The notes beneath the pieces were generated by a model. The model was not told the DNA's origin. It made no database searches and worked only from the letters and a program-made list of their open reading frames with translations. Source: an uncultured Clostridia bacterium (GTDB lineage: Bacteria > Bacillota > Clostridia > TANB77 > CAG-508). Taken from it: 64,000 bases of DNA. This document shows, in pieces, positions 4,137 to 44,975 of the stretch (its first letter is position 1; each line of letters starts with the position of its first letter). The stretch is from assembly GCA_947601495.1 (NCBI GenBank), contig CANQGE010000001.1, positions 31,731-95,730 of the forward strand, in the 5' to 3' direction. The position numbers and the translations under genes are program-made.

Positions 4137-7100
4137 TTATAAGTTTTTATTGTATTTTGTTTTAGGATATAAATTATCACCTAATAGTTCTTCTTCTATT
4201 CTAGCTTCTTCTTTTTGCTTTTCTCTTTCTTCTTCTCTTTGCTTTCTTATTTCCTCTTGTTTTCTCATTTTTTCTTCTTTTAGTTTTTGTCTTTCAATTT
4301 TTCTTTTTTCAGCTTTTTCTTTTCTTAGTTTATTTCTTTCTTCCCTTAATTTTCTTTGTTCTTCTTGTTTTTCTTTTTTATCTATAGATAATATATTTTC
4401 CTCATCTTTTTCTATTTCATACATTCCAGAATTTTCTGTTTCTGCACTCTCAACATCAATATCGCTTTTACTATCGAATTTTTCTATAATGCTTTCATAA
4501 AATTGCCTATTTTCCATTGATTTGTTAAACTCTTCTTCAGTTTTAAATTTTGAATCAATTTCATATATTTTTGAGAAATGAATCATAGATAATTTATCTG
4601 TTATGTTTATTCTATTTGTAAGCCAAATATTATTTAACTTATATTCAAGTTCAATATTAGATTCTTTTAATTCAGCTATTCTTAATCTTTTACATCTTAA
4701 ATCATATTCTTCTGATTTTTCATCTGGAAGTCTATCATAATTTTTTGACATACAATAAGCATAAGTATCTGCTCTATTAGAAACTACTTTTTCTTTTATC
4801 CAAACAGAATCATCATAATCGCAAAGAGTTGTATAAACTAAGGTATCTATTCTTTGAGCTTGCCTTTTGGTTATACCATATAATCCCATTAAGCCTTGCA
4901 TTCTATCACGTATTAGTGAAGGAGAATAATGTTTTTTCTCAAATCCGTCGTTTTTATCTATTCCTCGTATAATTTTTTCTACAAATATTTTTTCACTAAA
5001 TACTCTACAATATCCCTCTTCTGCATCAACAAAAATTAATACTGCACCATTTTTTTTGTTTGTTTCTACATTTTTTTTATCTTTTTTATGTTCTTTTTTT
5101 AATTCTCTTCTCTCTGCTTTTGCTCTTTCTAATTCTCTTTTCTCTGTTTCTCTTCTTTCTGCCTCTTGTTTTTCTTTTTCACGTTTTTCTATTTCTCTTT
5201 TTTCTGCTTCTATTCTTTCTTGTTCTATTCTTTCATTCTTTTTTGCTTCTAATTCTTTATTGTTCTCTTTTAAAATAGTTTCATTTTTTTCTTTCTGAAT
5301 ATTTTTAAAATCATTCTTTTTATTTATTTCATTTTCATTTTGAAATTCATCAAAAGTTTCCTGACCTTCGTAAGTATCTGAATTATTTTCTTTCTCTACA
5401 TCTAAATTTTCATCTAAGCTGTCAAATGATAATTGTGTGTTTTCTTCAGTTTCAATGTTGTTTAGATATATTTTGTCAAATTCTTTTTCTTTTTTTCTTT
5501 CTTCTATTTTTTCTTTAATACCTAATCCAAAATTTACTGTACTTGTTTTTACTTTATTAAAAGAGTTACTTACTACAGCTACGGTTTTTTCTTTTAAATT
5601 TTTTAATGATTTTGCAATATTTTCAAAATAATTATTAACTTTAAAACTTGATTCTGCATTATTAACTCTATTAGAAGAATTATTTATTAAAACAATGTTG
5701 TTTACATTTGTTTTTTTAGGATTTTTATTATAAATATTATTTTTATCTACAATTTCAATTTCTGGAATTATTGTTTTTATACTATCTTCTATATTGATAA
5801 TTTTTTCTTTATTTTCATTATTAGTTTTATCGTTTAAGTTTTCTTTACTTTCTGCTTTTTGCTCTTCCTTTTTATTATCATTATCTTTTACTTCGTTTGA
5901 CTCATCTTTTTCTTCTTTTTTATCTTTATTTTTATTTTCAATTTTATTTTCTTTATCTTCTAACTTATTATTATCTAATTTTTCTACGATAACTTCTTCT
6001 TTATTTTCAGACTGCTTTTTCTGTTCTATTTTATCTATTTTTGCTGCCATAAGAAGTTTTTGTTTTTTCTCTTCTTGTTTTTCTTTCGCAAAATCTTTTA
6101 ATTTATTAATTAGATTTTTTAAATTTTCTATAATTTTAGAAACGTTTAATTTTAAAAATGAAAATACTTTAATAGAAGTTGTTTTTATGTCTTGGAAAGA
6201 TATTTTTCTTCTAAATTTAGTTTTGTTTATTATAATTCCCATTGGATTTCCACCAACATTTTGAATATCTTTCTTAGCTTTAAATAAATCCTCTTTTTTA
6301 GTTTTCTTATAGTCCGATACTATTATTGTTGAATTAACAGCTCTAGTTAAAATTAAAGAATTCATATTGTTTAACACAGAAGTTCCATCTATTAAAACTA
6401 AATCATAAAAAACACTTAAGTCTTTTATTAATTCTTGTAATCTTTCAGAAGTAAGCAATTCTGTTGAATTTGGTGGTACTGTTCCTGAAGTAATCAAATT
6501 TAAATTTTTTATTCCTGTTTCATTTATAAAATTGTTTGTAAGTTTTTTTATTTCCATTCCATTAGAATCTAAACTTGATAAGTAATTAGAAAATCCAAGA
6601 TTGTTTGGTATGTTAAATATTTTATTTTGTCTACCATTTTGCATATCTGAATCTATTATTATTACTTTTTTTCCACTTTCTGCAAAAATTACACCAAGAT
6701 TAGCTGTAATGTAACTTTTTCCTTCACCATCTAAAGGACTTGTTATAAGTATTATGTTTTTCTCTTTATTATTAACGTTTATAAATTGAATATTAGTTCT
6801 AAGATTTCTAAATGCTTTTAAAGTTATTGATTTGCTTCCTGAAGTAGTTGATATTAATTCATTTTTAATTTTATTTGATTTATTTTTTTTGCAATTTATT
6901 AAAGGAATTTCAATTAATTTTTTTAAATTTATTTCATTATCGATGTTCTCATTAATTTTAATATTTCTGTCTATAATCGCTACAGCAAAAATATAACCAG
7001 AGCTTACTAAAATACCAATTATAAGAGAAATAAACGCACATAATATTATTGAAATATTTGTTGTAACTTTATTTATATGAGGACTATCAACTATATATAT

Positions 7101-7544
7101 TTCTCTATTTTCATACATTTCATCTAGTTTATCTGAAAGAATATCTATCAATTTTTGGTTTTCTTTTATTGAATTATTTTCATCAGTATTTTTTACTTGA
7201 ATTTGAAATGTATCTGAATTTGAATTTATTTTTATATCTATGCCTTTTCTTAGTTCTTTATTGCTTAAATTCAAATTTAAATCATCTTTTATTTTTTGAA
7301 TAGAGGAATCACTTTTTAATAGTTCTTTAAAAGTATGTATAAGTTTGGAAGTAATTTCTATGTTTTCTCTACTTTCGCTTTGTCCATTTTCAGTTACTTC
7401 TGATTTTATTAATAAAGCTTTTGATACTGAAATATATTCTTTTTTACTTAAGCATAGAGAAAGAACTATACCAATAATTAGTATAGATATTACAATTAAT
7501 ATTACATGTATTTTCTTTTCTTTTAATTTTTCCAAAAATATCAT
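4137..7544 (-). CDS. fused Wzz-like chain-length module + BY (bacterial tyrosine) kinase P-loop domain with long C-terminal extension
   Basis: 1135-aa ORF with two TM segments (aa ~12-32 and ~165-190) bracketing a Wzz-like loop. BY-kinase motifs follow: Walker A SPLDGEGKS, Walker A' VIIIDSDM, Walker B DLVLIDGTS. After that come ~650 aa of K/E/N-rich low complexity, one globular region (aa ~830-1035) and a charged coiled-coil tail. Confidence 0.7.
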   Translation of the reverse strand: MIFLEKLKEKKIHVILIVISILIIGIVLSLCLSKKEYISVSKALLIKSEVTENGQSESRENIEITSKLIHTFKELLKSDSSIQKIKDDLNLNLSNKELRKGIDIKINSNSDTFQIQVKNTDENNSIKENQKLIDILSDKLDEMYENREIYIVDSPHINKVTTNISIILCAFISLIIGILVSSGYIFAVAIIDRNIKINENIDNEINLKKLIEIPLINCKKNKSNKIKNELISTTSGSKSITLKAFRNLRTNIQFINVNNKEKNIILITSPLDGEGKSYITANLGVIFAESGKKVIIIDSDMQNGRQNKIFNIPNNLGFSNYLSSLDSNGMEIKKLTNNFINETGIKNLNLITSGTVPPNSTELLTSERLQELIKDLSVFYDLVLIDGTSVLNNMNSLILTRAVNSTIIVSDYKKTKKEDLFKAKKDIQNVGGNPMGIIINKTKFRRKISFQDIKTTSIKVFSFLKLNVSKIIENLKNLINKLKDFAKEKQEEKKQKLLMAAKIDKIEQKKQSENKEEVIVEKLDNNKLEDKENKIENKNKDKKEEKDESNEVKDNDNKKEEQKAESKENLNDKTNNENKEKIINIEDSIKTIIPEIEIVDKNNIYNKNPKKTNVNNIVLINNSSNRVNNAESSFKVNNYFENIAKSLKNLKEKTVAVVSNSFNKVKTSTVNFGLGIKEKIEERKKEKEFDKIYLNNIETEENTQLSFDSLDENLDVEKENNSDTYEGQETFDEFQNENEINKKNDFKNIQKEKNETILKENNKELEAKKNERIEQERIEAEKREIEKREKEKQEAERRETEKRELERAKAERRELKKEHKKDKKNVETNKKNGAVLIFVDAEEGYCRVFSEKIFVEKIIRGIDKNDGFEKKHYSPSLIRDRMQGLMGLYGITKRQAQRIDTLVYTTLCDYDDSVWIKEKVVSNRADTYAYCMSKNYDRLPDEKSEEYDLRCKRLRIAELKESNIELEYKLNNIWLTNRINITDKLSMIHFSKIYEIDSKFKTEEEFNKSMENRQFYESIIEKFDSKSDIDVESAETENSGMYEIEKDEENILSIDKKEKQEEQRKLREERNKLRKEKAEKRKIERQKLKEEKMRKQEEIRKQREEEREKQKEEARIEEELLGDNLYPKTKYNKNL

Positions 7545-7639
7545 TTTTTTCCTCTCTTATCTACTAAATAAAAAATAAAAGACGCAAATAAAAATTATTC
7601 ACATCTTTTGTATGGTATTTTCTTATAAAATTCTTAATC

Positions 7640-7668
7640 ATTATAGCAAACTTTCTTTAAAAATTCAA
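7640..7668 (-). promoter_or_regulatory. sigma-A type promoter for the Wzz/BY-kinase gene
   Basis: On the minus strand: TTGAAT (rc of 7663-7668), a 17-nt spacer, then TATAAT (rc of 7640-7645), about 90 nt upstream of the start codon. Confidence 0.45.
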
Positions 7669-7783
7669 TACTTTTAAAGTATTTATTTAAAAATTTTTAT
7701 GCTAATTTTGACATCTTATTTTTTAAAGTTTACTATTTTTATAGATTACTATTTAAACTCTGTTTTAAAACAATTGGAACGCC

Positions 7784-7810
7784 AAAAAGCACACTGTAAA
7801 GTGTGCCTTT
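7784..7810 (-). terminator. rho-independent terminator after the 142-aa surface protein gene
   Basis: Stem GCACACT / AGTGTGC with a 4-nt loop, followed by UUUUU on the minus strand. Confidence 0.75.
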
Positions 7811-7834
7811 TATATTTTAAAAATTAATTTCTAA

Positions 7835-8263
7835 TTAAACATTATAATCTGATACTTTCTTATAAGCATATAATGCTGAAGCAACAAGTGCAATTGTTAC
7901 AAATACCATAGATGATCCATTTCCTGCATATGGTAATGAAGAACTTACTTTATTTGTGTTTGAATTTGTTGAATTAGTATTACTAGAAGTATTAGTGTTT
8001 GTGTTGTTTACTGTATTATTAGCACTTGGTGAACCAACTGTTGCTGGAATAAGTGTTCCGTTTGTGTTTGAATTTGTGTTCTCATCTGTAGCTTCATTAT
8101 TAACTGCTCCTGCTTCTTCGTTTGTTGAAGTTGTATTTGTATCTGCAACTAATTGTTGACCTTCTGTAGCAGAAACTAATGAACTTATACTAGCAAATGT
8201 GAAAGTTATTAATACGATAAGTACTAAACTTACTAAAAATTTTTCTTTTCTTAATTTAACCAT
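7835..8263 (-). CDS. small secreted N/T/S-rich protein with LPxAG-type C-terminal sorting signal
   Basis: 142 aa with an N-terminal signal/TM segment (LVSLVLIVLITFTFASISSLVSA) and a low-complexity Asn/Thr/Ser spacer. The C-terminus reads LPYAG + hydrophobic stretch (SSMVFVTIALVASALYAY) + KK, the layout of a sortase substrate. Confidence 0.6.
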   Translation of the reverse strand: MVKLRKEKFLVSLVLIVLITFTFASISSLVSATEGQQLVADTNTTSTNEEAGAVNNEATDENTNSNTNGTLIPATVGSPSANNTVNNTNTNTSSNTNSTNSNTNKVSSSLPYAGNGSSMVFVTIALVASALYAYKKVSDYNV

Positions 8264-19495: not shown

Positions 19496-21604
19496 TTATT
19501 CTTCGCTATATAAGTCTTTTCTTGTTAAATTAATTCTGCCTTGGTCGTCTATTTCATAAACTTTAACAGTTACTTCATCTCCAAGTTTTAAGACATCTTC
19601 TACTTTATTTATTCTTTCTTTTGCTATTTTAGAAATGTGAAGTAATCCTTCTTTTCCTCCGCCTAAATCTATAAATGCACCAAATGTAGCTATTCTTGTA
19701 ACTTTTCCTGTATAGATTCCATCAACTTCAATTTCTCTTGTTATTTCTTCTATGATACTTTGAGCAGATCTTGCTTTTTCTATATCATCTGAATAAATAA
19801 ATACAGAACCATCTTCTTCAATATCAATTTTAACTCCTGTTTCTTCAATAATTTTATTAATAACTTTTCCGCCAGAACCAATAACATCTTTAATTTTTTC
19901 TGGATTAATTTGCATATTAATAATTTTTGGAGCATATTTTGAAATTTCTTTTCTAGGTTCAGAAATTTGTGGAAGCATTATTTCATCTAAAATGTATGTC
20001 CTTGCTTTTGCTGTTCTCTCAAATGCTTCTTCAATAATTTCATAGCTTAATCCATCAACTTTTATATCTACTTGAATTGCTGTTATTCCATCTTTTGTTC
20101 CACCAACTTTAAAGTCCATATCGCCAAAGAAATCTTCAATTCCTTGAATATCTGTAATAACAACATATTTGCTTGGATCATTTTCATCAGTAATTAATCC
20201 TGTTGAAATACCTGCAACTGGTTTCTTTATTGGAACACCAGCATCCATTAATGCCAATGTTGATGCACAAATGCTTCCTTGTGATGTAGAACCATTTGAA
20301 CTTAAAATTTCAGATACAACTCTTATTGAATAAGGAAATTCTTCTACACTTGGAAGTACTGGAACTAATGCTTTTTCAGCTAATGCACCATGTCCAATTT
20401 CTCTTCTTCCAGGTCCACGAGAAGCTTTTACTTCTCCAACACTATATCCTGGAAAATTATATTGATGCATATATCTTTTTGATTCTTCTGTATCTAGTCC
20501 ATCTAATAATTGCTCTTCGCTTTTCATTCCTAATGTAACTATTGACATTACTTGTGTTCTTCCTCTATTAAATAAACTACTACCATGAACTCTAGGAATT
20601 AATCCAACTTCACAAGATAATGGTCTTATATCATATATTCCTCTACCATCAACTCTTTTTCCTTCTTCTAGTATTAGTTTTCTAACAGTTTTCTTCTCTA
20701 ATTTATATATAGCATCTGCTATAGCTGTTTTATCTTCTTCAGCTTTTTCTTCACCAAATTTTTCAATATACCAATTTTTAACATCTTCTGAAAGCTTGTC
20801 TATTTTTTCATCTCTTTCTGGTTTATCTGGTGTTTGAACATCTTGTTTCATTCTTTCAGAAAATTCATTTGCTATTACTTCATAAACTTCTTCATTTACA
20901 GCAAAAGATGTATATTCAAATTTTGGTTTTCCTATTTCATCTTTTATTCCTTGTATAAATTCACATACTTTTTTAATTTCTACATGTGCTGTTTTAATTG
21001 CATCTAACATTGTTTTGTTTGGTATTTCATCAGCACCTGCTTCTATCATTGCTATTTTATCTTTAGTTCCTGCAACAGTTAATGTTAATCTACTATTTTT
21101 TCTTTGTTCTTCAGTAGGATTTATAACTATTTGGTCATTAACATATCCAACTGCAACAGCTGCTGTTGGTCCTCCAAATGGTATATCAGATATTGAAAGT
21201 GCAGCAGAAGTTCCTATCATACTGCAAACTTCTGGTGAGCAATCTTGCTCTACTGATAAAACTAAACAGCTAACAACAACATCATTTCTAAAATCTTTTG
21301 GGAACAATGGTCTAATTGGTCTATCTATTGCTCTTGCTGTTAAAATTGCTTTATCTGTTGGTTTTCCTTCTCTTTTTGTAAAGCTTCCAGGTATTTTTCC
21401 AACAGCATATAATCTTTCTTCATAATCTACTGAAAGTGGGAAAAAGTCTATTCCTTCTTTTGGTTCTTTTGAAGCTGTAACATTAACAAGTACAGTTGTT
21501 TCGCCATATCTTACAAGTACGCTTCCATTGGCAAGTCCTGCCATTTTTCCTGTTTCTATAGTAAGTGTTCTTCCTGCTAATTCCATACTATAAGTTTTAA
21601 ACAT
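19496..21604 (-). CDS. pnp: polynucleotide phosphorylase
   Basis: 702 aa with two RNase PH domains (GDMDFKVGGT), a KH domain and an S1 domain (GKVTRIATFGAFIDL). AGGAGGA RBS. Confidence 0.97.
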   Translation of the reverse strand: MFKTYSMELAGRTLTIETGKMAGLANGSVLVRYGETTVLVNVTASKEPKEGIDFFPLSVDYEERLYAVGKIPGSFTKREGKPTDKAILTARAIDRPIRPLFPKDFRNDVVVSCLVLSVEQDCSPEVCSMIGTSAALSISDIPFGGPTAAVAVGYVNDQIVINPTEEQRKNSRLTLTVAGTKDKIAMIEAGADEIPNKTMLDAIKTAHVEIKKVCEFIQGIKDEIGKPKFEYTSFAVNEEVYEVIANEFSERMKQDVQTPDKPERDEKIDKLSEDVKNWYIEKFGEEKAEEDKTAIADAIYKLEKKTVRKLILEEGKRVDGRGIYDIRPLSCEVGLIPRVHGSSLFNRGRTQVMSIVTLGMKSEEQLLDGLDTEESKRYMHQYNFPGYSVGEVKASRGPGRREIGHGALAEKALVPVLPSVEEFPYSIRVVSEILSSNGSTSQGSICASTLALMDAGVPIKKPVAGISTGLITDENDPSKYVVITDIQGIEDFFGDMDFKVGGTKDGITAIQVDIKVDGLSYEIIEEAFERTAKARTYILDEIMLPQISEPRKEISKYAPKIINMQINPEKIKDVIGSGGKVINKIIEETGVKIDIEEDGSVFIYSDDIEKARSAQSIIEEITREIEVDGIYTGKVTRIATFGAFIDLGGGKEGLLHISKIAKERINKVEDVLKLGDEVTVKVYEIDDQGRINLTRKDLYSEE

Positions 21605-21633: not shown

Positions 21634-21709
21634 TTATTTGAAATGTAACCTCTACAATATAGTATTTTGCTTAAAAATAATACATTGTACAAGCTACTCT
21701 TTCAAATAA
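21634..21709 (-). promoter_or_regulatory. imperfect leader hairpin directly upstream of the pnp RBS
   Basis: Outer pairs TTATTTGAAA (21634-43) / TTTCAAATAA (21700-09) and inner pairs TACAAT..TATT / AATA..ATTGTA, separated by a 9x10 internal loop. The structure ends about 15 nt before the pnp RBS. Confidence 0.35.
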
Positions 21710-21837
21710 ATAACCATAAGTATTTTACTATATTAACATAAAAAAATCAAGATAATATTTATTTCTAAGTTCTATCATTTGCATTTGTATATTTTTTAAT
21801 TATTAATTTTATTTTTAGCTATTATTATTTAAATAGC

Positions 21838-21991
21838 TATCTAATATAGTTTATATAATTTAAAGGTAACGCGTAAGCGACCAACCGAAGCGAAAGCGAA
21901 GGGCGATTGGAGCAATCTTCATTTTGTTAATTTTAAAAAAAGAAGATTGCGACACCAAGTTACCGATAAATTATATAAACTATATTAGATA
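21838..21991 (-). repeat. long-hairpin element A: 25-bp perfect AT stem + 98-nt GC-rich core (copy 1 of a 2-copy family)
   Basis: The inverted repeat 21838-21862 / 21967-21991 is perfect. Core 21866-21963 is 91/98 identical to the reverse complement of 44554-44651. It contains a 9-bp helix GCAATCTTC/GAAGATTGC. The strand given is the one sharing sense with copy B. Confidence 0.85.
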
Positions 21992-22045
21992 ATGGTATTT
22001 TAATTAAACAGATATAATAAACTTAAAATAAAATTTTTGCTTCAA

Positions 22046-22075
22046 AATAAAAAACTCGGAACAAATCCGAGCTTT
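22046..22075 (-). terminator. rho-independent terminator after rpsO
   Basis: Stem CTCGGA / TCCGAG (22055-60 / 22066-71) followed by UUUUUU on the minus strand. Confidence 0.75.
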
Positions 22076-22078
22076 TAA

Positions 22079-22342
22079 TTATTTTCTTAAGTTTAATTTT
22101 TTAACTATTTCTCTATATCTGTTAACATCTTTCTTAGCTAAATAGTTTAATAAATTTCTTCTTTTACCAATCATTTTTAATAATCCTCTTCTAGAGTGAT
22201 TATCTTTTTGATGAACTTTTAAGTGTTCTGTTAATTCTGATATTCTTTCTGATAAAAGAGCAATTTGTACTTCTGGTGATCCAGTATCATTTTCTTCTCT
22301 CTTATAAGTATTAATAATTTCTTGTTTTCTTTCTTTAGTCAT
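22079..22342 (-). CDS. rpsO: 30S ribosomal protein S15
   Basis: The conserved S15 sequence starts at [14 protein letters not shown]...[10 protein letters not shown]. The ATG at 22342 has a GGAGGA RBS 8 nt upstream. The ORF-track start at 22375 adds 11 unsupported residues. Confidence 0.95.
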
Positions 22343-22478
22343 TATCTTTATCCTCCTATTTATTTTATTTGCCATAAGCTGAGTATAAAGTAGGTTTTTC
22401 CTTTAAACTAAGTTTGTGGTATTTTTTAACATAGCTATTGTACAATATTTTTTTTAAAAAATCAAGCATTTAGAAAAA

Positions 22479-23120
22479 TTAATCTAATTCTTCGCGTTCT
22501 TTTTCTTTTTTTGCTATATATAAAACTAATTCAACCACAGCAATAACTGTCATTAAGTTTACTATTACAGGTGATACTGGGATTCTTACTATTGCTATTA
22601 GGCTTGCTATAGCAAGTTCTGTTAAAGCAACTAGTACAAATAGTTTTCCTAACAATTCAAATGTATTCATTTTTCTAAATCTAATAACTAAATATGCAAC
22701 AATTACTACTACTGAAATAATTACTGGTTTTATATATGGTCTAATTAAATCTCTTATTCTTACATTTGAAACTTTCATTCTTTCAATATTTTCTGCTTCA
22801 AGCTCTGTTCCATATTTTTCATTTATTTTAGTTACTAAATTGTTTCTTTCTTCATCTGTGATAGATTGTGAGCTTATATTAAATGAATCTCTAAAGAAAT
22901 CTACACTTCTTACAACTACTGCTTTTTTTCCAAAAACTTCTTTACATATATCTTTTACTTCTTTTATATTTGTTTCTTTTCCTATAAATATATTTATTGA
23001 TTCATGTTGTTCTAACATTAAATATACATTAAATCCTTTCAATGCTACTACAACTAGTCCTGCAACTATTAAAAGAATCAAGCCCAATATAATTATTTTT
23101 TTGCTTCCATTTAATTCCAT
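22479..23120 (-). CDS. SecF-like membrane protein (divergent, only 4 predicted TM segments)
   Basis: Start at MELNGSKK (ATG 23120, GGAG RBS 7 nt upstream). Layout is TM1, a ~100-aa loop, then 3 TM segments. It sits at the syntenic position downstream of queA-tgt and directly after the SecD-like gene. The canonical GYSxNDTxVxFDRxRE motif and the last two TM segments are missing. Confidence 0.45.
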   Translation of the reverse strand: MELNGSKKIIILGLILLIVAGLVVVALKGFNVYLMLEQHESINIFIGKETNIKEVKDICKEVFGKKAVVVRSVDFFRDSFNISSQSITDEERNNLVTKINEKYGTELEAENIERMKVSNVRIRDLIRPYIKPVIISVVVIVAYLVIRFRKMNTFELLGKLFVLVALTELAIASLIAIVRIPVSPVIVNLMTVIAVVELVLYIAKKEKEREELD

Positions 23121-23145
23121 TGTTTTTCTCCTTTTATAAACTATT

Positions 23146-24573
23146 TTAAACATTTATAATAAACAAATAATTGTATAATGCTTGAAGGAATAATCCCCAG
23201 AATAGAATCATTCCTATACTGCTTATAACCACACTAGACATAAATGTAAATATTATAGAAATTGCACAAATAGGTATAATTGCTAAATACATTTTTTTCA
23301 TAGTTTCTAATAAAGCTATTTTCTTCATTTGGTTAGATTCTAATCTCTTTAAATATTTGATAACAAAAATATAATTTATAATTACTACAGCTACAGTAGC
23401 TATCAAAGCATTTACTGTTATTGCAACATTTGTATATCTTAATATAAGATTTAATAATCCTAAATATCCTAAAGTTAGTATAGAAGCTTTTAATCCTTCT
23501 AATTTAAATCTAATTATTAAATATAAACTTACAACAGCTATAGCTACTATAGTTACTATTTCTGCTACTAATTTTACATCATTAGTTAAAACAGAATTAA
23601 TACGATTATCTGAGCTCAATGTGTATTTTAAAGGTAAAGCATCATCATTTAAAATGTCTACTATCATTGATACACTTTGTGCAACTTCTTTATATTCATC
23701 AAAATCTTCTGTTGCTTGTCCCATAGGAATTTGTAACACGCCTGTTGCTAGTTCTTCGCCGAAATAAGTTGTACTAATAACTTGGTCGTCCATCTTTATA
23801 GAAATATAATTTGTTGTTTCTGTTCCATCTTCTGCTGTAACAGTTTGATATTTATTACTAATATCTTTTAATTTATCTTTTCCATCTTTTTCAAATGTTA
23901 GTTGTAAATATGCTTGGTATGAATTATTATTATTTGATGCTAACATTTTAGCTTCTTTTAAAGTTGAATCATCCATTAATATTAATCCATTTTGATAATC
24001 GATAATTTCAATTTTTCCAACTGTAGAAACTAAGGCTTGTTCAAGTGATAAATTTTCATTATCTGGTAATTCTATAATTATTTCTCCAGTAATACTATCT
24101 AGTCTTATATTATATTCATATACATCCATTTTTTCTAATCTAGATTGAATTACTTTTTTTGCTTTTTCGAAGTTTTCTTTTGTTATACTAGAATCTTCAT
24201 TTGCTTTTATTGTTCTTGTTTCTTTAGTATAGCCTTCTACTTCTGTCTTATCTTCTTCTGGTTCTTCAGTTTTTTCTGCTGATTGATCATTGGTATCTAA
24301 AGAAATTTCTGTATTTGAAGGAGTTTCTTCTTTTACTTCTCCTGCATAATTTCCACCAGCATCTACATATATTTCTTTTTCTTCTTCTGAGTTATCTAAT
24401 ACATAATGTAATTCTCTTTTTCCATCTAGCTCCATTCCTAGATTAAAATCTGGTAATATGTTTCTCCAAATTCCATAATTCTTAACATATAGTCCAACAA
24501 AAGCTACTACTGCTATTAATATTGCACCTAATAGTATTGTTATTGTTTTTACTGTTTTTAAATTCTTTTCCAA
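23146..24573 (-). CDS. SecD-like membrane protein (divergent)
   Basis: 475 aa: TM1, a large extracytoplasmic domain and 5 C-terminal TM segments. LGMELDGKRE resembles the SecD LGLDLxGG start. ISIKMDDQVISTTYFGEELATGVLQI resembles the P1 (IAIVLDGKVISAP...I.GG) segment. The TM4 motif MAVDANV is replaced by AVVIINY. Confidence 0.5.
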   Translation of the reverse strand: MEKNLKTVKTITILLGAILIAVVAFVGLYVKNYGIWRNILPDFNLGMELDGKRELHYVLDNSEEEKEIYVDAGGNYAGEVKEETPSNTEISLDTNDQSAEKTEEPEEDKTEVEGYTKETRTIKANEDSSITKENFEKAKKVIQSRLEKMDVYEYNIRLDSITGEIIIELPDNENLSLEQALVSTVGKIEIIDYQNGLILMDDSTLKEAKMLASNNNNSYQAYLQLTFEKDGKDKLKDISNKYQTVTAEDGTETTNYISIKMDDQVISTTYFGEELATGVLQIPMGQATEDFDEYKEVAQSVSMIVDILNDDALPLKYTLSSDNRINSVLTNDVKLVAEIVTIVAIAVVSLYLIIRFKLEGLKASILTLGYLGLLNLILRYTNVAITVNALIATVAVVIINYIFVIKYLKRLESNQMKKIALLETMKKMYLAIIPICAISIIFTFMSSVVISSIGMILFWGLFLQALYNYLFIINV

Positions 24574-24585
24574 AGTTATTACCTC

Positions 24586-25245
24586 CTATAATAAGTTTGT
24601 ATCATTTATAATTAATTCAAACCATAAACCTAAATATTTTGCTGCTCTTTTGCTCATTTTTGTTCTATCCATAAATATTTCAAAATAATCTATAACAGGA
24701 CAAATTTTTGTATCTATTGTTAAATTTAATATTGCTTTTCTTTCTTCAACATCAATTTTGAGCTCCGAATTTGTAACTGCATAATTTACTTCATCGTGTT
24801 TATCGAATAAACTTCTATCTTTTTTTGAAACTCTGCTTCTATGTGCATCAGATTTGTCTGCTAAAATAAGGGCCGCCGATATGTCGCTAACTGCTGTACC
24901 AGTTAATTCATCATGGTTTCCTATTGCCATCATAATTTCAGTTCTATCAGATGCTTCCATGTTCATATCTTTTAAAATATTATAAGCAAGAATCGCTCCG
25001 GTATGTGCATGGTCTACTCTGTTTACAGAATTACCAATATCATGCATATAGCCAGCAATCCTTGCAAGTTCTATTCTATGTTCATCATATCCTAGAGTTC
25101 TAAGTATGTTTCCTGCTCTTTCAGCAACTACAGATACATGTCTATTAGAATGTTCTGTATATCCTAAAACGTCTAATTGCTTTTGAGCATTTTTTATTAG
25201 TTCTTTTACTTCTACATTATTAACAACATCCTCAAAAGTTACCAT
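24586..25245 (-). CDS. HD-domain phosphohydrolase
   Basis: 219 aa with H...HD metal-site pattern (HSNRHV, YMHDIGN, GNHDE). AGGGAGGA RBS. Confidence 0.75.
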   Translation of the reverse strand: MVTFEDVVNNVEVKELIKNAQKQLDVLGYTEHSNRHVSVVAERAGNILRTLGYDEHRIELARIAGYMHDIGNSVNRVDHAHTGAILAYNILKDMNMEASDRTEIMMAIGNHDELTGTAVSDISAALILADKSDAHRSRVSKKDRSLFDKHDEVNYAVTNSELKIDVEERKAILNLTIDTKICPVIDYFEIFMDRTKMSKRAAKYLGLWFELIINDTNLL

Positions 25246-43090: not shown

Positions 43091-44377
43091 ATGAAAATTT
43101 TAATGCTATCATGGGAATATCCACCAAGAGTTGTTGGAGGTATATCAAGAGTGGTTTATGACTTATCACACAAATTATGTATGCAAGGTCATAAAGTTAC
43201 CGTTATTACTTATAAAGATGGTAATGTACCATATTTTGAAGATGATGATGGTGTTGATGTTTACAGAGTAGATAATTTTATGATTGCTCCTAATAATTTT
43301 ATAGATTGGGTTATGCAACTTAATTTCAATATGATAGCAAAAGCTGGAGAAATTATTGCACAACAAGGAAACTTTGATGTTATACATGCTCATGATTGGC
43401 TTACTGCTTATGCTGGAAAAACATTAAAATTTGCATATAATACTCCTCTTGTAGCTACTATACATGCTACTGAAGCTGGTAGAAATAGCGGTATTAGAGG
43501 TGATATGCAAAAATATATTAATGATACTGAATGGATGCTTACTTATGAATCTTCAGAAGTTATCGTTAATAGTAATTATATGAAAAACGAATTACAAAGA
43601 CTTTTTGGTCTTCCTTATGAGAAAATAAATGTAGTACCTAATGGTGTTGATCTTACTTTATTTAATGGAATTGATAGAGACTATGAATTTAGAAGAAGAT
43701 TTGCCATGGATAATGAAAAAATTATTCTATTCATGGGTAGATTAGTTTATGAAAAAGGTATTCAAACACTTATTTCTGCTATGCCTAAAATCTTAGACAA
43801 TTATCATGATGCAAAATTAGTTATCGCAGGAAAAGGCGGAATGATTAATGAATTAAGAAATCAAGTTAATTTCCTTGGATTAGGAAATAAAGTTTATTTC
43901 ACAGGACACTTAGCTTCTAAAGATGTTCAAAAAATGTACAAGTGTGCTGATGTTGCTGTATTCCCTAGTACATATGAACCTTTTGGAATTGTAGCTATTG
44001 AAGCTATGCTTTCTGGAACACCAGTAGTTACTTCTGATGTTGGTGGATTAAATGAAATTGTAGAACATGGAGTAAATGGAATGAAAAGTTATGCTGGAAA
44101 TCCAAACTCTCTTGCAGATTCTATTCTTGCATTATTATTTAATCCAGAATTATGCAACACAGTTTCAAAAAATGCAAAAGAAAAAGTTAAAGCTCAATAT
44201 AATTGGACTAAAATTACAGAAGAAACTCACTTCACTTATGAAACAGCTATTTGTGAAACTATTGCAGAAAGACAAAAGAAACAAATTGCTCAAGAAGAAG
44301 CTCGTAATCAAATTAAAAAATCTAAAGAAGTTACAAACCTACTTTCATTCAAGAAAACTCACGAGGCATTTGCATAA
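43091..44377 (+). CDS. GT4-family glycosyltransferase (glycogen synthase-like)
   Basis: 428 aa. N-terminal MKILMLSWEYPPRVVGGISRVV and the C-terminal E-x7-E region (STYEPFGIVAIEAMLSGTPVV). Divergent from the GH57/DUF4912 operon. Confidence 0.8.
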   Translation: MKILMLSWEYPPRVVGGISRVVYDLSHKLCMQGHKVTVITYKDGNVPYFEDDDGVDVYRVDNFMIAPNNFIDWVMQLNFNMIAKAGEIIAQQGNFDVIHAHDWLTAYAGKTLKFAYNTPLVATIHATEAGRNSGIRGDMQKYINDTEWMLTYESSEVIVNSNYMKNELQRLFGLPYEKINVVPNGVDLTLFNGIDRDYEFRRRFAMDNEKIILFMGRLVYEKGIQTLISAMPKILDNYHDAKLVIAGKGGMINELRNQVNFLGLGNKVYFTGHLASKDVQKMYKCADVAVFPSTYEPFGIVAIEAMLSGTPVVTSDVGGLNEIVEHGVNGMKSYAGNPNSLADSILALLFNPELCNTVSKNAKEKVKAQYNWTKITEETHFTYETAICETIAERQKKQIAQEEARNQIKKSKEVTNLLSFKKTHEAFA

Positions 44378-44408
44378 GATTTTAATAAAATATGTTTATA
44401 ATAATATA

Positions 44409-44445
44409 AAAACTCTTAGGAATTATTTTCTTAAGAGTTTTTTTG
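44409..44445 (+). terminator. rho-independent terminator after the GT4 gene
   Basis: Stem AACTCTTAGGAA / TTCTTAAGAGTT (one mismatch) followed by TTTTTT. Confidence 0.75.
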
Positions 44446-44521: not shown

Positions 44522-44527
44522 TATTGT

Positions 44528-44677
44528 GAATGCTTAAAAAATATAATTTAATAGTAACTTGGTGTCGCAATCTTCTTTTTTATAAATAAACAAAAGGAAG
44601 ATTGCTCCAATCGCCCTCCGCTTATGCTTCGGTTGGTCGCTTACGCGTTACTATTTAATTATATTTTTTAAGCATTC
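44528..44677 (+). repeat. long-hairpin element B: second copy of the 98-nt GC-rich core, inverted relative to element A
   Basis: Core 44554-44651 is the reverse complement of 21866-21963 at 91/98 identity. The outer stem GAATGCTTAAAAAATATAATTTAATA / TATTTAATTATATTTTTTAAGCATTC is 26 bp with one mismatch. Confidence 0.85.
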
Positions 44678-44714
44678 ATAATATTTTTTGCAATTAATTT
44701 TAAAAATTATTTTA

Positions 44715-44975
44715 TTACTTCTTTTTGAGGTAAAGAAAAAGAACTCTTATTTGAGTTCTCCGTAACATTTCTTCTAATATTTTCTCTGCTACTATCAAAG
44801 GTGTTTGTTTTGGATTTGGTATTGCGCTGATTTTCTCCAAGTATTCTATTTGTTTCTCCCTCGGAAGCTTTTGAGCTTTCTCTACCATATTGTCCAAATA
44901 TTCCATTCGTTCCTTTTCTGTTCTCTGAAAACTTGTTAGACAACTGAATATTGTTCCTGATGGGTAATATACCAT
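44715..44975 (-). CDS. hypothetical small protein in a locally GC-enriched patch (reading frame uncertain)
   Basis: 86-aa ORF with an ATG preceded by AGGGGAAG at good spacing. The helical-looking segment is MEYLDNMVEKAQKLPREKQIEYLEKISAI.... A second frame (44707..44943, TTG start) is also open. G/C-ending codons are more frequent than in neighbouring genes. Confidence 0.3.
   Translation of the reverse strand: MVYYPSGTIFSCLTSFQRTEKERMEYLDNMVEKAQKLPREKQIEYLEKISAIPNPKQTPLIVAEKILEEMLRRTQIRVLFLYLKKK

Follow-up and report, generated by a model that had tools for sequence, protein, structure and literature searches.

The two hairpin copies and their genomic setting

We analyzed a 64,000-nucleotide (nt) stretch of DNA from an uncultured Clostridia bacterium (assembly GCA_947601495.1, contig CANQGE010000001.1, positions 31,731 to 95,730; hereafter, the window), which has a G+C content of 26.2% and carries two copies of a GC-rich hairpin element. 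Copy 1 (21838..21991, + strand; 130.8 bits over 21854-21975 with R1, the covariance model of the family described below) lies between rpsO (22079-22375, - strand) and pnp (19496-21604, - strand). More precisely, it stands between the rpsO terminator, which a terminator scan places at 22050-22076 (- strand) and which is separate from the element, as an earlier sequence-only reading of this DNA had it, and a conserved promoter-like block of pnp (about 21677-21750, - strand) common to the window and a sister species. Because of this placement, copy 1 lies outside both mature transcripts, and we saw no sign that it regulates rpsO or pnp. Its core reads in what we term the sense direction of the family on the + strand, i.e., antisense to both genes. 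Copy 2 (44522..44683, - strand; 126.7 bits) is situated between the convergent ends of a glycosyltransferase gene (ending at 44377, + strand) and an open reading frame of 86 amino acids (ending at 44715, - strand). R1 detects only these two copies in the window, the next-best match scoring 21 bits, and a 26-mer from the start of the core occurs twice there versus not at all in 100 shuffles. As had been stated, no transposase, reverse transcriptase, or recombinase is seen near either copy.

In copy 1, a perfect 25-bp AT-rich inverted repeat (5' arm, 21838..21862; 3' arm, 21967..21991) surrounds a 98-nt core (21866..21963, + strand). The outer part of the 5' arm is specific to the locus, and its inner part follows the family layout of an A/T-only box and then a T-run. 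The core is closed by a clamp helix, P1, formed by GTAAC (21866..21870, + strand) and GTTAC (21959..21963, + strand). Within the clamp there follow the first GCGNNAGC mini-hairpin motif (GCGTAAGC, i.e., GC-GTAA-GC; 21871..21878, + strand; motif as defined in PMC13037366); the helix P2 (21885..21902, + strand; CC at 21885-21886 paired with GG at 21901-21902), inside which there are a symmetric internal loop (GNA/GNA) and the second mini-hairpin motif (GCGAAAGC; 21890..21897, + strand); the P4 hairpin (21912..21950, + strand), in which GCAATCTTC (21912-21920) pairs with GAAGATTGC (21942-21950) below an apical loop (21921-21941); and a conserved single-stranded 3' segment of the core, GACACCAA (21951..21958, + strand), whose columns are at least 90% conserved. 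The sequence-only reading had described both the 25-bp inverted repeat and the 9-bp helix of P4 correctly; the G+C content of the non-loop part of the core, which it put at 55%, is 51% when measured, and the 21-nt loop that it called A/T contains one G.

The core recurs in copy 2 (44554..44651, - strand) with 91 of the 98 positions identical, exactly as previously noted. The 7 differences, at core positions 27, 28, 34, 56, 64, 69, and 70, had been predicted to be unpaired, and the family consensus structure bears this out: positions 27 and 28 are in the loop of the second small hairpin, 34 is in an internal loop, 56 is a mismatch just above the 9-bp helix, and 64, 69, and 70 are in the apical loop. 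The description of copy 1 as clamped by a long inverted repeat stands, and it extends to copy 2, where the repeat had gone unnoticed. The arms of copy 2 reach about 32 nt past the core on each side, with 22 bp perfectly paired (44527-44548/44657-44678), and are unrelated to those of copy 1 beyond about 12 nt of common inner part. Either strand of either copy folds with about -60 kcal/mol (z of about -10 relative to shuffled sequences).

A large family with dispersed intergenic copies

Both copies of what had been taken for a two-copy module are real, and they belong to a far larger family that is strongly conserved beyond the source genome. Our genome set comprised at least 97 loci that match an 18-mer of the core in a species-representative genome collection, and a search of metagenomes with a pattern for the opposite half of the core yielded 41 contigs. 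With R1 cutoffs of at least 47 bits in metagenome-assembled genomes (MAGs) and at least 60 bits in metagenome contigs, we obtained at least 143 copies, comprising the 2 in the window, at least 95 in at least 16 species-level MAGs, and 46 in the metagenome contigs. All 41 of these contigs carry true copies, and many of them end inside the repeat; 14 high-GC loci that match the 18-mer by chance gave no R1 match. The genome copies come from uncultured Clostridia, Clostridium, or Eubacteriales of rabbit, goat, buffalo, and mouse gut, and a single MAG, Lapin-015__bin83, has at least 26 of them. The element is about 135 to 190 bp long and occurs at a density of roughly one copy per 50 kb. As far as seen, the family is confined to one clade of gut Clostridia, whose members are uncultured, spore forming, and very AT rich. 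A search of the window against Rfam 15 at the gathering score recovered nothing but one tRNA, and a search of 21700-22120 with E values of up to 10 recovered only chance-level hairpin matches (E of 0.07 or more); no curated covariance model matches the element at either window copy. Searches of phage and plasmid collections with blastn gave no match to the element, and four pattern scans of viral contigs returned nothing but four chance matches in high-GC coding DNA.

Among the matches listed, all 87 full-length genome copies are intergenic. An open frame that runs across copy 1 was considered as a coding sequence and ruled out by single-base indels among the copies. Relative to the core, the flanking genes in the genomes are on the opposite strand in 31 cases ("--"), on the same strand in 24 ("++"), convergent in 14, and divergent in 7; the corresponding counts in the metagenomes are 20, 10, 3, and 2. 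The gene ends that face the element are 3' ends in 91 cases versus 5' ends in 72, and the 3' ends are closer (median distance, 47 nt, with a lower quartile of 10 nt) than the 5' ends (median, 114 nt). Many copies are within operons, where they separate a stop codon from the ribosome-binding site that follows, as in accB-fabZ and spoVAD-spoVAC (for the latter, the copy L052:6978-7156). Clustering of the neighboring proteins in the genome and metagenome sets revealed no consistent neighbor pointing to a linked enzyme, and no transposase recurs beside the copies, which the earlier reading had considered as the mark of an ordinary miniature inverted-repeat transposable element (MITE).

This distribution bears on one alternative, namely, that the element is maintained by the host as a cis element working in either direction, whether as a transcription barrier or stabilizer of mRNA 3' ends (a domesticated, REP-like role) or as a cruciform DNA site for a chromosomal protein. 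The placement of copies just past stop codons and inside operons, the high stability of the hairpin on both strands, the underrepresentation of divergent intergenic regions (7 and 2, versus 14 and 3 convergent ones), the occupation in many species of the sites upstream of ftsE, between rpsO and pnp, and between accB and fabZ, and the position of copy 1 exactly between the rpsO terminator and the pnp promoter are all in keeping with such a role. However, a plain hairpin would suffice for it, which leaves the conserved asymmetric core unexplained. Moreover, the native terminators in the window are simple AT hairpins of 9 to 17 bp, and the arms of the element are not, as a rule, followed by a T-run. 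Together with the empty orthologous sites and decayed copies described below, these points make a host-maintained cis element quite unlikely in our view.

Two neighborhoods were observed in passing. A multicopy gene (L011:548-1381, L013:4073-4572, L083:4305-5397, L061:535-1602, and L005:3153-4136) adjoins family copies in Lapin-015__bin77 only; from inspection of the sequence by eye, we take its products to be Rpn/YhgA-type proteins of the PD-(D/E)XK "transposase_31" kind. In another locus (L128:7958-10220; also L056 near 7087-7998, L125, and L130), a family copy lies about 60 nt from the end of a large serine recombinase gene, which was read in two frames and is followed by what appears to be only the C-terminal part of a polysaccharide deacetylase gene and then by yqfC and yqfD. 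An intervening element of the sporulation type may thus split a gene here.

Anatomy and covariation of the family

From the outside inward, the element begins with an outer arm of 4 to 20 nt that differs in every copy and is complementary to its own partner. Next comes an A/T-only box at positions -10 to -17, often ATATAT, which ends 9 to 11 nt from the clamp in 46 of 85 copies, and inside the box there is TTTTT followed by AA, with an A-A mismatch two positions outside the clamp whose column is unpaired in 60 of 85 copies. Counting the clamp, the arms are nearly perfect and measure 36 nt at the median (range, 20 to 61). The layout of the core is GCGTAAGCG-ACCAACCG-N-AGCG-N(1-2)-AGCG-N-AGGGCGA-N-TGGAGCA, followed by P4 with its AT-rich loop and then by TGCGACACCAAG. 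It is asymmetric and GC-rich, and its purine-rich unpaired segments are found on one strand only. Within a genome, identity is 95% in the core, 73% in the clamp, 71% in the apical loop, and 56% in the inner arms; between genomes, the core is 85% identical.

The covariation on which the sequence-only reading had relied is real. The P1 clamp occurs in such variants as GTAAC/GTTAC, GTGAC/GTCAC, GCACC/GGTGC, ATTCC/GGAAT, and AACCC/GGGTT, and four of its five pairs each show between 33 and 43 double changes. Two pairs of the 9-bp P4 helix show 26 and 32 double changes, and a C:G pair of P2 is replaced by A:U in 3 sequences; the apical loop of P4 tolerates an insertion of 85 nt (in the L052 copy). 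Over the entire structure, 25 of 32 pairs show double changes, and 85% of the cells are paired versus 72% in column shuffles, none of 500 shuffles reaching the observed value; when the partners are slid by 1 to 3 columns, pairing is at most 44%. Mismatches in the arms are balanced between G-T plus T-G (30) and A-C plus C-A (31), and those in the core helices between the G-U type (about 7) and the A-C type (about 8). On account of this balance, the counts are uninformative as to the functional strand.

Of 45 metagenome copies, which were not selected for the half of the core that contains these mini-hairpins, 43 have the GCGN(N)AGC motif at site 1 and 33 have it at site 2. By their sequence, these motifs fit the definition of "mini-hairpin DNA," which is hyperstable as DNA and much weaker as RNA and is known from primase sites of single-stranded phage origins, ssiA of RSF1010, and the hairpin promoters of phage N4 (PMC13037366). 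The variants observed (GCGTAAGC, GCGAAAGC, GCGCAAGC, GCGTTAGC, GCGAAGC, GCGTAGC, GCGCAGC, and GCGGAGC) differ only at the N positions and alternate between the 8-nt GCGNNAGC and the 7-nt GCGNAGC forms. Judged from this pattern, the motif may favor single-stranded DNA, though it is no proof; RNA versions of the 8-nt forms would be GNRA-type loops.

These features need to be weighed against the possibility that the copies are structured noncoding RNA genes or modules, in which the core on the sense strand would form a three- or four-way junction with two GNRA-type hairpins and the AT arms would be an RNase III processing stem that releases the core. A parallel is offered by the precursors of rRNA, whose stem is cut by RNase III. 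A GC-rich island in a genome of 26% G+C, the strong covariation in P1 and P4 and the pairing excess over shuffled and slid alignments, GUAA, GAAA, and GCAA loops that vary at the N position, purine-rich unpaired segments on one strand only, an apical P4 loop of variable length, and a core sequence conserved between genera would all suit such an RNA, which, with no Rfam model, would be new. On the other hand, codirectional neighbors are oriented almost at random ("++" 24 versus "--" 31 in the genomes and 10 versus 20 in the metagenomes), so that a cis role in host mRNA would work in only about half of the copies. We found no promoter above background in the core or the element; a -35-like TTGCGA at the 3' end of the core combined with a -10-like box in the arm was examined as a promoter and discarded for wrong or inconsistent spacing. 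Nor did the scan report a terminator belonging to either window copy, the 3' inner arm being A-rich rather than U-rich. In addition, G-U mismatches are not preferred over A-C mismatches, the 7-nt GCGNAGC forms, hyperstable as DNA and weak as RNA (PMC13037366), are common, and copies flip and decay, as set out below. The structured RNA that the sequence-only reading had offered as one alternative is accordingly weakened by the near-random orientation, the core flips, the lack of a promoter or terminator of its own, and the absence of a G-U preference, and we rate it as unlikely.

Inversion of the core between orthologous sites

At three pairs of orthologous sites (L049/L075, L010/L055, and L062/L096), the core is reverse-complemented while the flanks are 85 to 92% identical and the arms are homologous. 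The inner approximately 13 nt of the arms, including the asymmetric A-A position, invert together with the core. In the arms of the L062/L096 pair, four T-A to A-T swaps are each mirrored on the other arm. Likewise, the copy between rpsO and pnp is antisense in the window and sense in Lapin-032__bin102, and comparison of neighboring genes revealed further flipped sites next to genes for a Lon-like ATPase and an acyl-coenzyme A synthetase-like protein and between accB and fabZ. Orientation is unchanged at the TraX-glycosyltransferase site, where copy 2 of the window and its orthologue L023:6944-7106 read the same way, upstream of ftsE (5 of 5), and at the serine recombinase neighbor (4 of 4). 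Altogether, both orientations are represented at 7 of the 10 shared sites. Within the species of the window, copy 1 has a single orientation in all 8 contigs, and flipping is therefore sporadic rather than a rapid switch.

A directional core between inverted repeats that differs in orientation among orthologues is what a programmed inverton would look like, i.e., a device in which a recombinase flips the core between the arms to alter the expression of neighboring genes. The A/T-only, often ATATAT, box, which stands at a fixed distance in both arms and is common to other core families, could be the crossover site, and a large serine recombinase gene adjoins one copy in four contigs. That recombinase was rejected as a general partner, since it adjoins this one site only, and there is no invertase near most copies. 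Further, the arm sequences are not conserved, which leaves no common binding site for a recombinase; the core has no promoter; eight assemblies of the same species agree in the orientation of copy 1; and the neighbors are varied housekeeping genes, not surface or phase-variable genes. A programmed switch is thus, in our estimate, highly improbable.

Filled and empty sites, decay, and sister families

Comparison of related genomes recovered orthologous sites that are filled in one and empty in the other (L004 versus L018 and L080 versus L091). At the empty sites, the entire hairpin, arms included, is missing, and no palindrome is present. In addition, two paralogues (L049:7491-7654 and L049:2361-2523), which are 5 kb apart and have unrelated flanks, share 94% of their outer arms. 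Since they do so at unrelated loci, the copied unit includes the arms. Insertion into the loops of preexisting terminator hairpins was entertained as a general rule, the short AT hairpins native to the window and the A- or T-runs in some outer arms being in its favor, and rejected in view of the empty sites without a palindrome and the paralogues that share a whole arm.

Copies also decay. The L069 copy has an internal deletion, and the L070 copy is truncated and has a different GC-core hairpin nested inside it. At L043:2420-2886, three copies follow one another in tandem, repeating every 162 bp; in the first two, the core is mutated at its 3' end and the 3' arm is reduced to its inner part. 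This arrangement suggests a slippage duplication of a unit composed of the 5' arm, the core, and the inner 3' arm. A second strain of the window species shows 97% identity over 5.2 kb, rising to about 99% in the surroundings of rpsO and pnp. In the 474-nt spacer between these two genes, it has 3 differences, all of which are at unpaired positions of the core and change toward the family consensus; the chance of all three being in the core is about 0.009 if changes are random across the spacer. This hints at either conversion between copies or mutation focused on loops.

The same MAGs contain sister hairpins with the same layout of the arms (a variable outer arm, an ATATAT box, and a T-run) and with unrelated or distantly related GC-rich cores, none of which matched Rfam. 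These are at L072:6995-7140, L017:7314-7451, L056:6264-6395, L020:7217-7382, L041:3253-3356, L065:297-393, and L070 (approximately 1700-1870). Those in L072 and L017 (7314) constitute one core family, and the L072 hairpin occupies the site orthologous to that of a copy of the main family in L017. The hairpins thus form a class of elements in this clade rather than a single family.

Other features of the loci

Several observations concern the surroundings of the copies. The segment 21605-21790 of the window, upstream of pnp and downstream of the element, is nearly identical to its counterpart in Lapin-032__bin102 (L079), while the remaining spacer has fully diverged; promoter-like sites are found in this segment, along with a conserved leader of some 110 nt that may regulate pnp. 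Upstream of rpsO, a segment with two membrane or surface protein genes (22765-24600; L098:250-2250) shows 5 to 8% divergence between two strains of the same species, whereas rpsO and pnp differ by about 1% between the same two strains, marking this segment as a local divergence hot spot. Following the glycosyltransferase gene, there is a 46-nt terminator-like hairpin (44398-44443; CTCTTAAG...CCTAAGAG, with A- and T-runs), which is precisely missing from the same-species contig L106, otherwise 98 to 100% identical to the window. Finally, the only Y1 transposase seen in the loci is an IS200 TnpA of 158 amino acids (L017:4331-4918; HUH and Y motifs recognized by eye), which is not flanked by copies of the element; upstream of its gene is a match to the Rfam family STnc490 of 50.7 bits, below the gathering score of 56.

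Comparison with known repeats and hairpins

One close likeness is to the REP sequences and REPINs associated with RAYT transposases, which are similarly short, noncoding, extragenic, and present in tens to hundreds of copies; REPINs further resemble the family in being long hairpins made from two inverted halves, nonautonomous, vertically persistent, free of target-site duplications, and thought to act as single-stranded hairpins (PMC3116915, PMC3337134). However, a REPIN consists of conserved, recognized REP halves around a variable spacer, whereas here variable arms surround a conserved spacer of about 98 nt. Furthermore, in the approximately 0.8 Mb of loci examined, copies were not seen to flank any RAYT-like gene, and the hosts are low-GC Clostridia rather than Proteobacteria. 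Like the family, the Correia/NEMIS, ERIC, RUP, and BOX repeats are intergenic, palindromic, multicopy sequences of 100 to 200 bp that occur in either orientation and are often cotranscribed, and their RNA hairpins can be cleaved by RNase III or stabilize the upstream mRNA. They have conserved terminal inverted repeats, accompanied in Correia and RUP elements by short target-site duplications; the present elements have no detectable duplication, unconserved termini, and a GC-rich asymmetric center.

Along with MITEs, the family is small, noncoding, and multicopy within a genome, but it lacks conserved terminal inverted repeats: the outer arms of different copies are unrelated, and identity in the inner arms is only 56% within a genome. 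The characterization in the sequence-only reading of a novel MITE-like element rather than a terminator can be retained to the extent that the element has no Rfam match, is dispersed, and occupies certain orthologous sites in one genome but not in another. In the strict sense the term does not apply, and the element is no canonical MITE, given arms that vary among copies, a conserved center, and no detectable target-site duplication. Nor does the element have the short GC-rich stem-loop, with a T-run immediately after it at a gene end, that defines an intrinsic terminator; near copy 1, the scan reports only the separate rpsO terminator.

In the AT-rich mitochondrial DNA of yeast, GC-rich palindromic clusters are mobile, concentrate their changes in loops, and merge or nest without a known transposase (PMC4478555). 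These GC clusters and double-hairpin elements are comparable to the family as GC-rich structured islands in an AT-rich genome that are intergenic, multicopy, and polymorphic in presence, with substitutions mostly in loops and with nesting and merging. Unlike the family, they are organellar, are only 30 to 60 bp long, lack long AT arms, and have putative short target-site duplications; as there is no sequence relationship, the comparison is one of analogy only. The mini-hairpin signals of single-stranded DNA (the phage G4 and St-1 origins, RSF1010 ssiA, and the phage N4 promoters; PMC13037366) have a counterpart in the two such motifs on one strand of the core, but those signals are single-copy parts of phage or plasmid origins or promoters. 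With invertons, the family shares a segment between inverted repeats that is found in both orientations (in this case, between species); they differ in having repeats conserved in the family, a nearby invertase, and an internal promoter (PMC11892184), none of which we found here. In integron attC sites, by definition, the hairpin has conserved R'' (RYYYAAC) and R' (GTTRRRY) boxes at its base and a variable center and is associated with an integrase and a cassette array. In the present elements, by contrast, the base is variable and the center conserved, the copies are dispersed rather than arrayed, and the GTAAC/GTTAC clamp covaries freely (e.g., to GCACC/GGTGC and ATTCC/GGAAT). In sum, the strict definitions of MITE, REPIN, inverton, attC site, and terminator each fail on at least one tested feature.

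A probable nonautonomous palindromic repeat, with proposed maintenance at the DNA level

We favor, with moderate confidence, the interpretation that the family is a nonautonomous palindromic repeat akin to REPINs, MITEs, and mitochondrial GC clusters, in which template switching or recombination between the arms at the DNA level keeps the arms complementary and flips the core. It is best read as a small mobile, formerly mobile, or selfish element and not as a gene regulator. Its possible rivals, in falling order of likelihood, are the stand-alone structured RNA, the domesticated orientation-independent cis element, and the programmed inverton discussed above.

The covariation, while real, does not decide between RNA and DNA. 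Template switching between inverted repeats is documented as making their arms alike and turning the spacer around (PMC8604942) and as generating and preserving perfect hairpins along with what look like compensatory changes (PMC8794818). It can therefore account for the perfect, locus-specific arms, the compensated changes without a G-U bias, and the inversion of the spacer. As described, it is a mutational mechanism that mostly involves short repeats and spacers, and its action on 30-bp arms with a 98-nt spacer is what we infer here. The balanced G-U and A-C mismatches, the near-random orientation, and the inversion of the core fit such DNA-level upkeep of inverted repeats. We would thus attribute the complementarity of the AT arms to switching or recombination from arm to arm on DNA and not to selection on RNA.

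The asymmetric GC-rich core, not being palindromic, calls for another explanation, and because it is the center that is conserved and the arms that vary, the arms cannot be classical terminal repeats bound by a transposase. The core would be a sequence-specific module that becomes single-stranded at the replication fork or is extruded as a cruciform from easily melted AT arms. Once single-stranded, it would fold into a junction containing the two GCGN(N)AGC mini-hairpins and the 9-bp helix, and a putative trans-acting protein would recognize the folded core and thereby mobilize the element. When transcribed, the hairpin of -60 kcal/mol may present an orientation-independent block to 3' exonucleases or a site for RNase III, as REP, ERIC, and Correia elements do in their transcripts; this would be a side effect and not the reason for the existence of the element.

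A number of results weigh against this interpretation. The best direct repeats flanking the copies have the same length distribution as those in flank-shuffled controls, so that no target-site duplication is detectable, a test which a 2-bp TA duplication would escape in DNA this rich in A+T. An autonomous relative would be expected to show as a gene surrounded by an inverted repeat of 17 bp or more that bears the arm signature; about 0.8 Mb of loci contain none, and no mobilizing enzyme was found among the neighbors of the copies. No empty site was recovered at the strain level: all 8 same-species contigs carry copy 1 and both of the 2 informative ones carry copy 2, each oriented as in the window, and an empty-site pattern for copy 1 had no matches in the metagenomes. 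The genomes that do have filled and empty sites are only 70 to 82% identical, too distant to fix the exact boundaries or to tell gain from loss. The conserved center with variable arms is the reverse of the situation in MITEs and REPINs. At some sites the orientation is steady, as upstream of ftsE, where it is the same in 5 of 5 cases. Lastly, a core conserved across genera, with purine-rich unpaired segments on one strand and GNRA-type loops, has the look of a functional RNA.

A bolder proposition, which we put forward tentatively and as rather doubtful, is that these hairpins and their sister families represent a new class of element, a bacterial counterpart of the mitochondrial GC clusters that has a definite molecular handle. 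In it, the AT arms would present a single-stranded core whose hyperstable mini-hairpins are recognized by a putative enzyme, e.g., a primase-like protein, an HUH-type protein, or a structure-specific nuclease; or else the core on the sense strand would be a new multicopy structured RNA that is freed from a precursor cut by RNase III.

To our knowledge, few parts of bacterial genomes are as poorly understood as small palindromic repeats, and this family reverses their usual pattern by combining a conserved center with freely varying arms. A single element here illustrates the concerted evolution of arms, the flipping of a spacer in place, and the persistence of a GC-rich module at 26% G+C. For RNA discovery, it is a caution that the dynamics of palindromes at the DNA level can give rise both to strong "covariation" and to a GC-rich island within AT-rich DNA. 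For these gut Clostridia, the family is one that breaks metagenome assemblies, as seen from the contigs that end in the repeat, and it could serve as a lineage marker. If an enzyme that recognizes the core exists, the two DNA mini-hairpins would be a direct handle for finding it.

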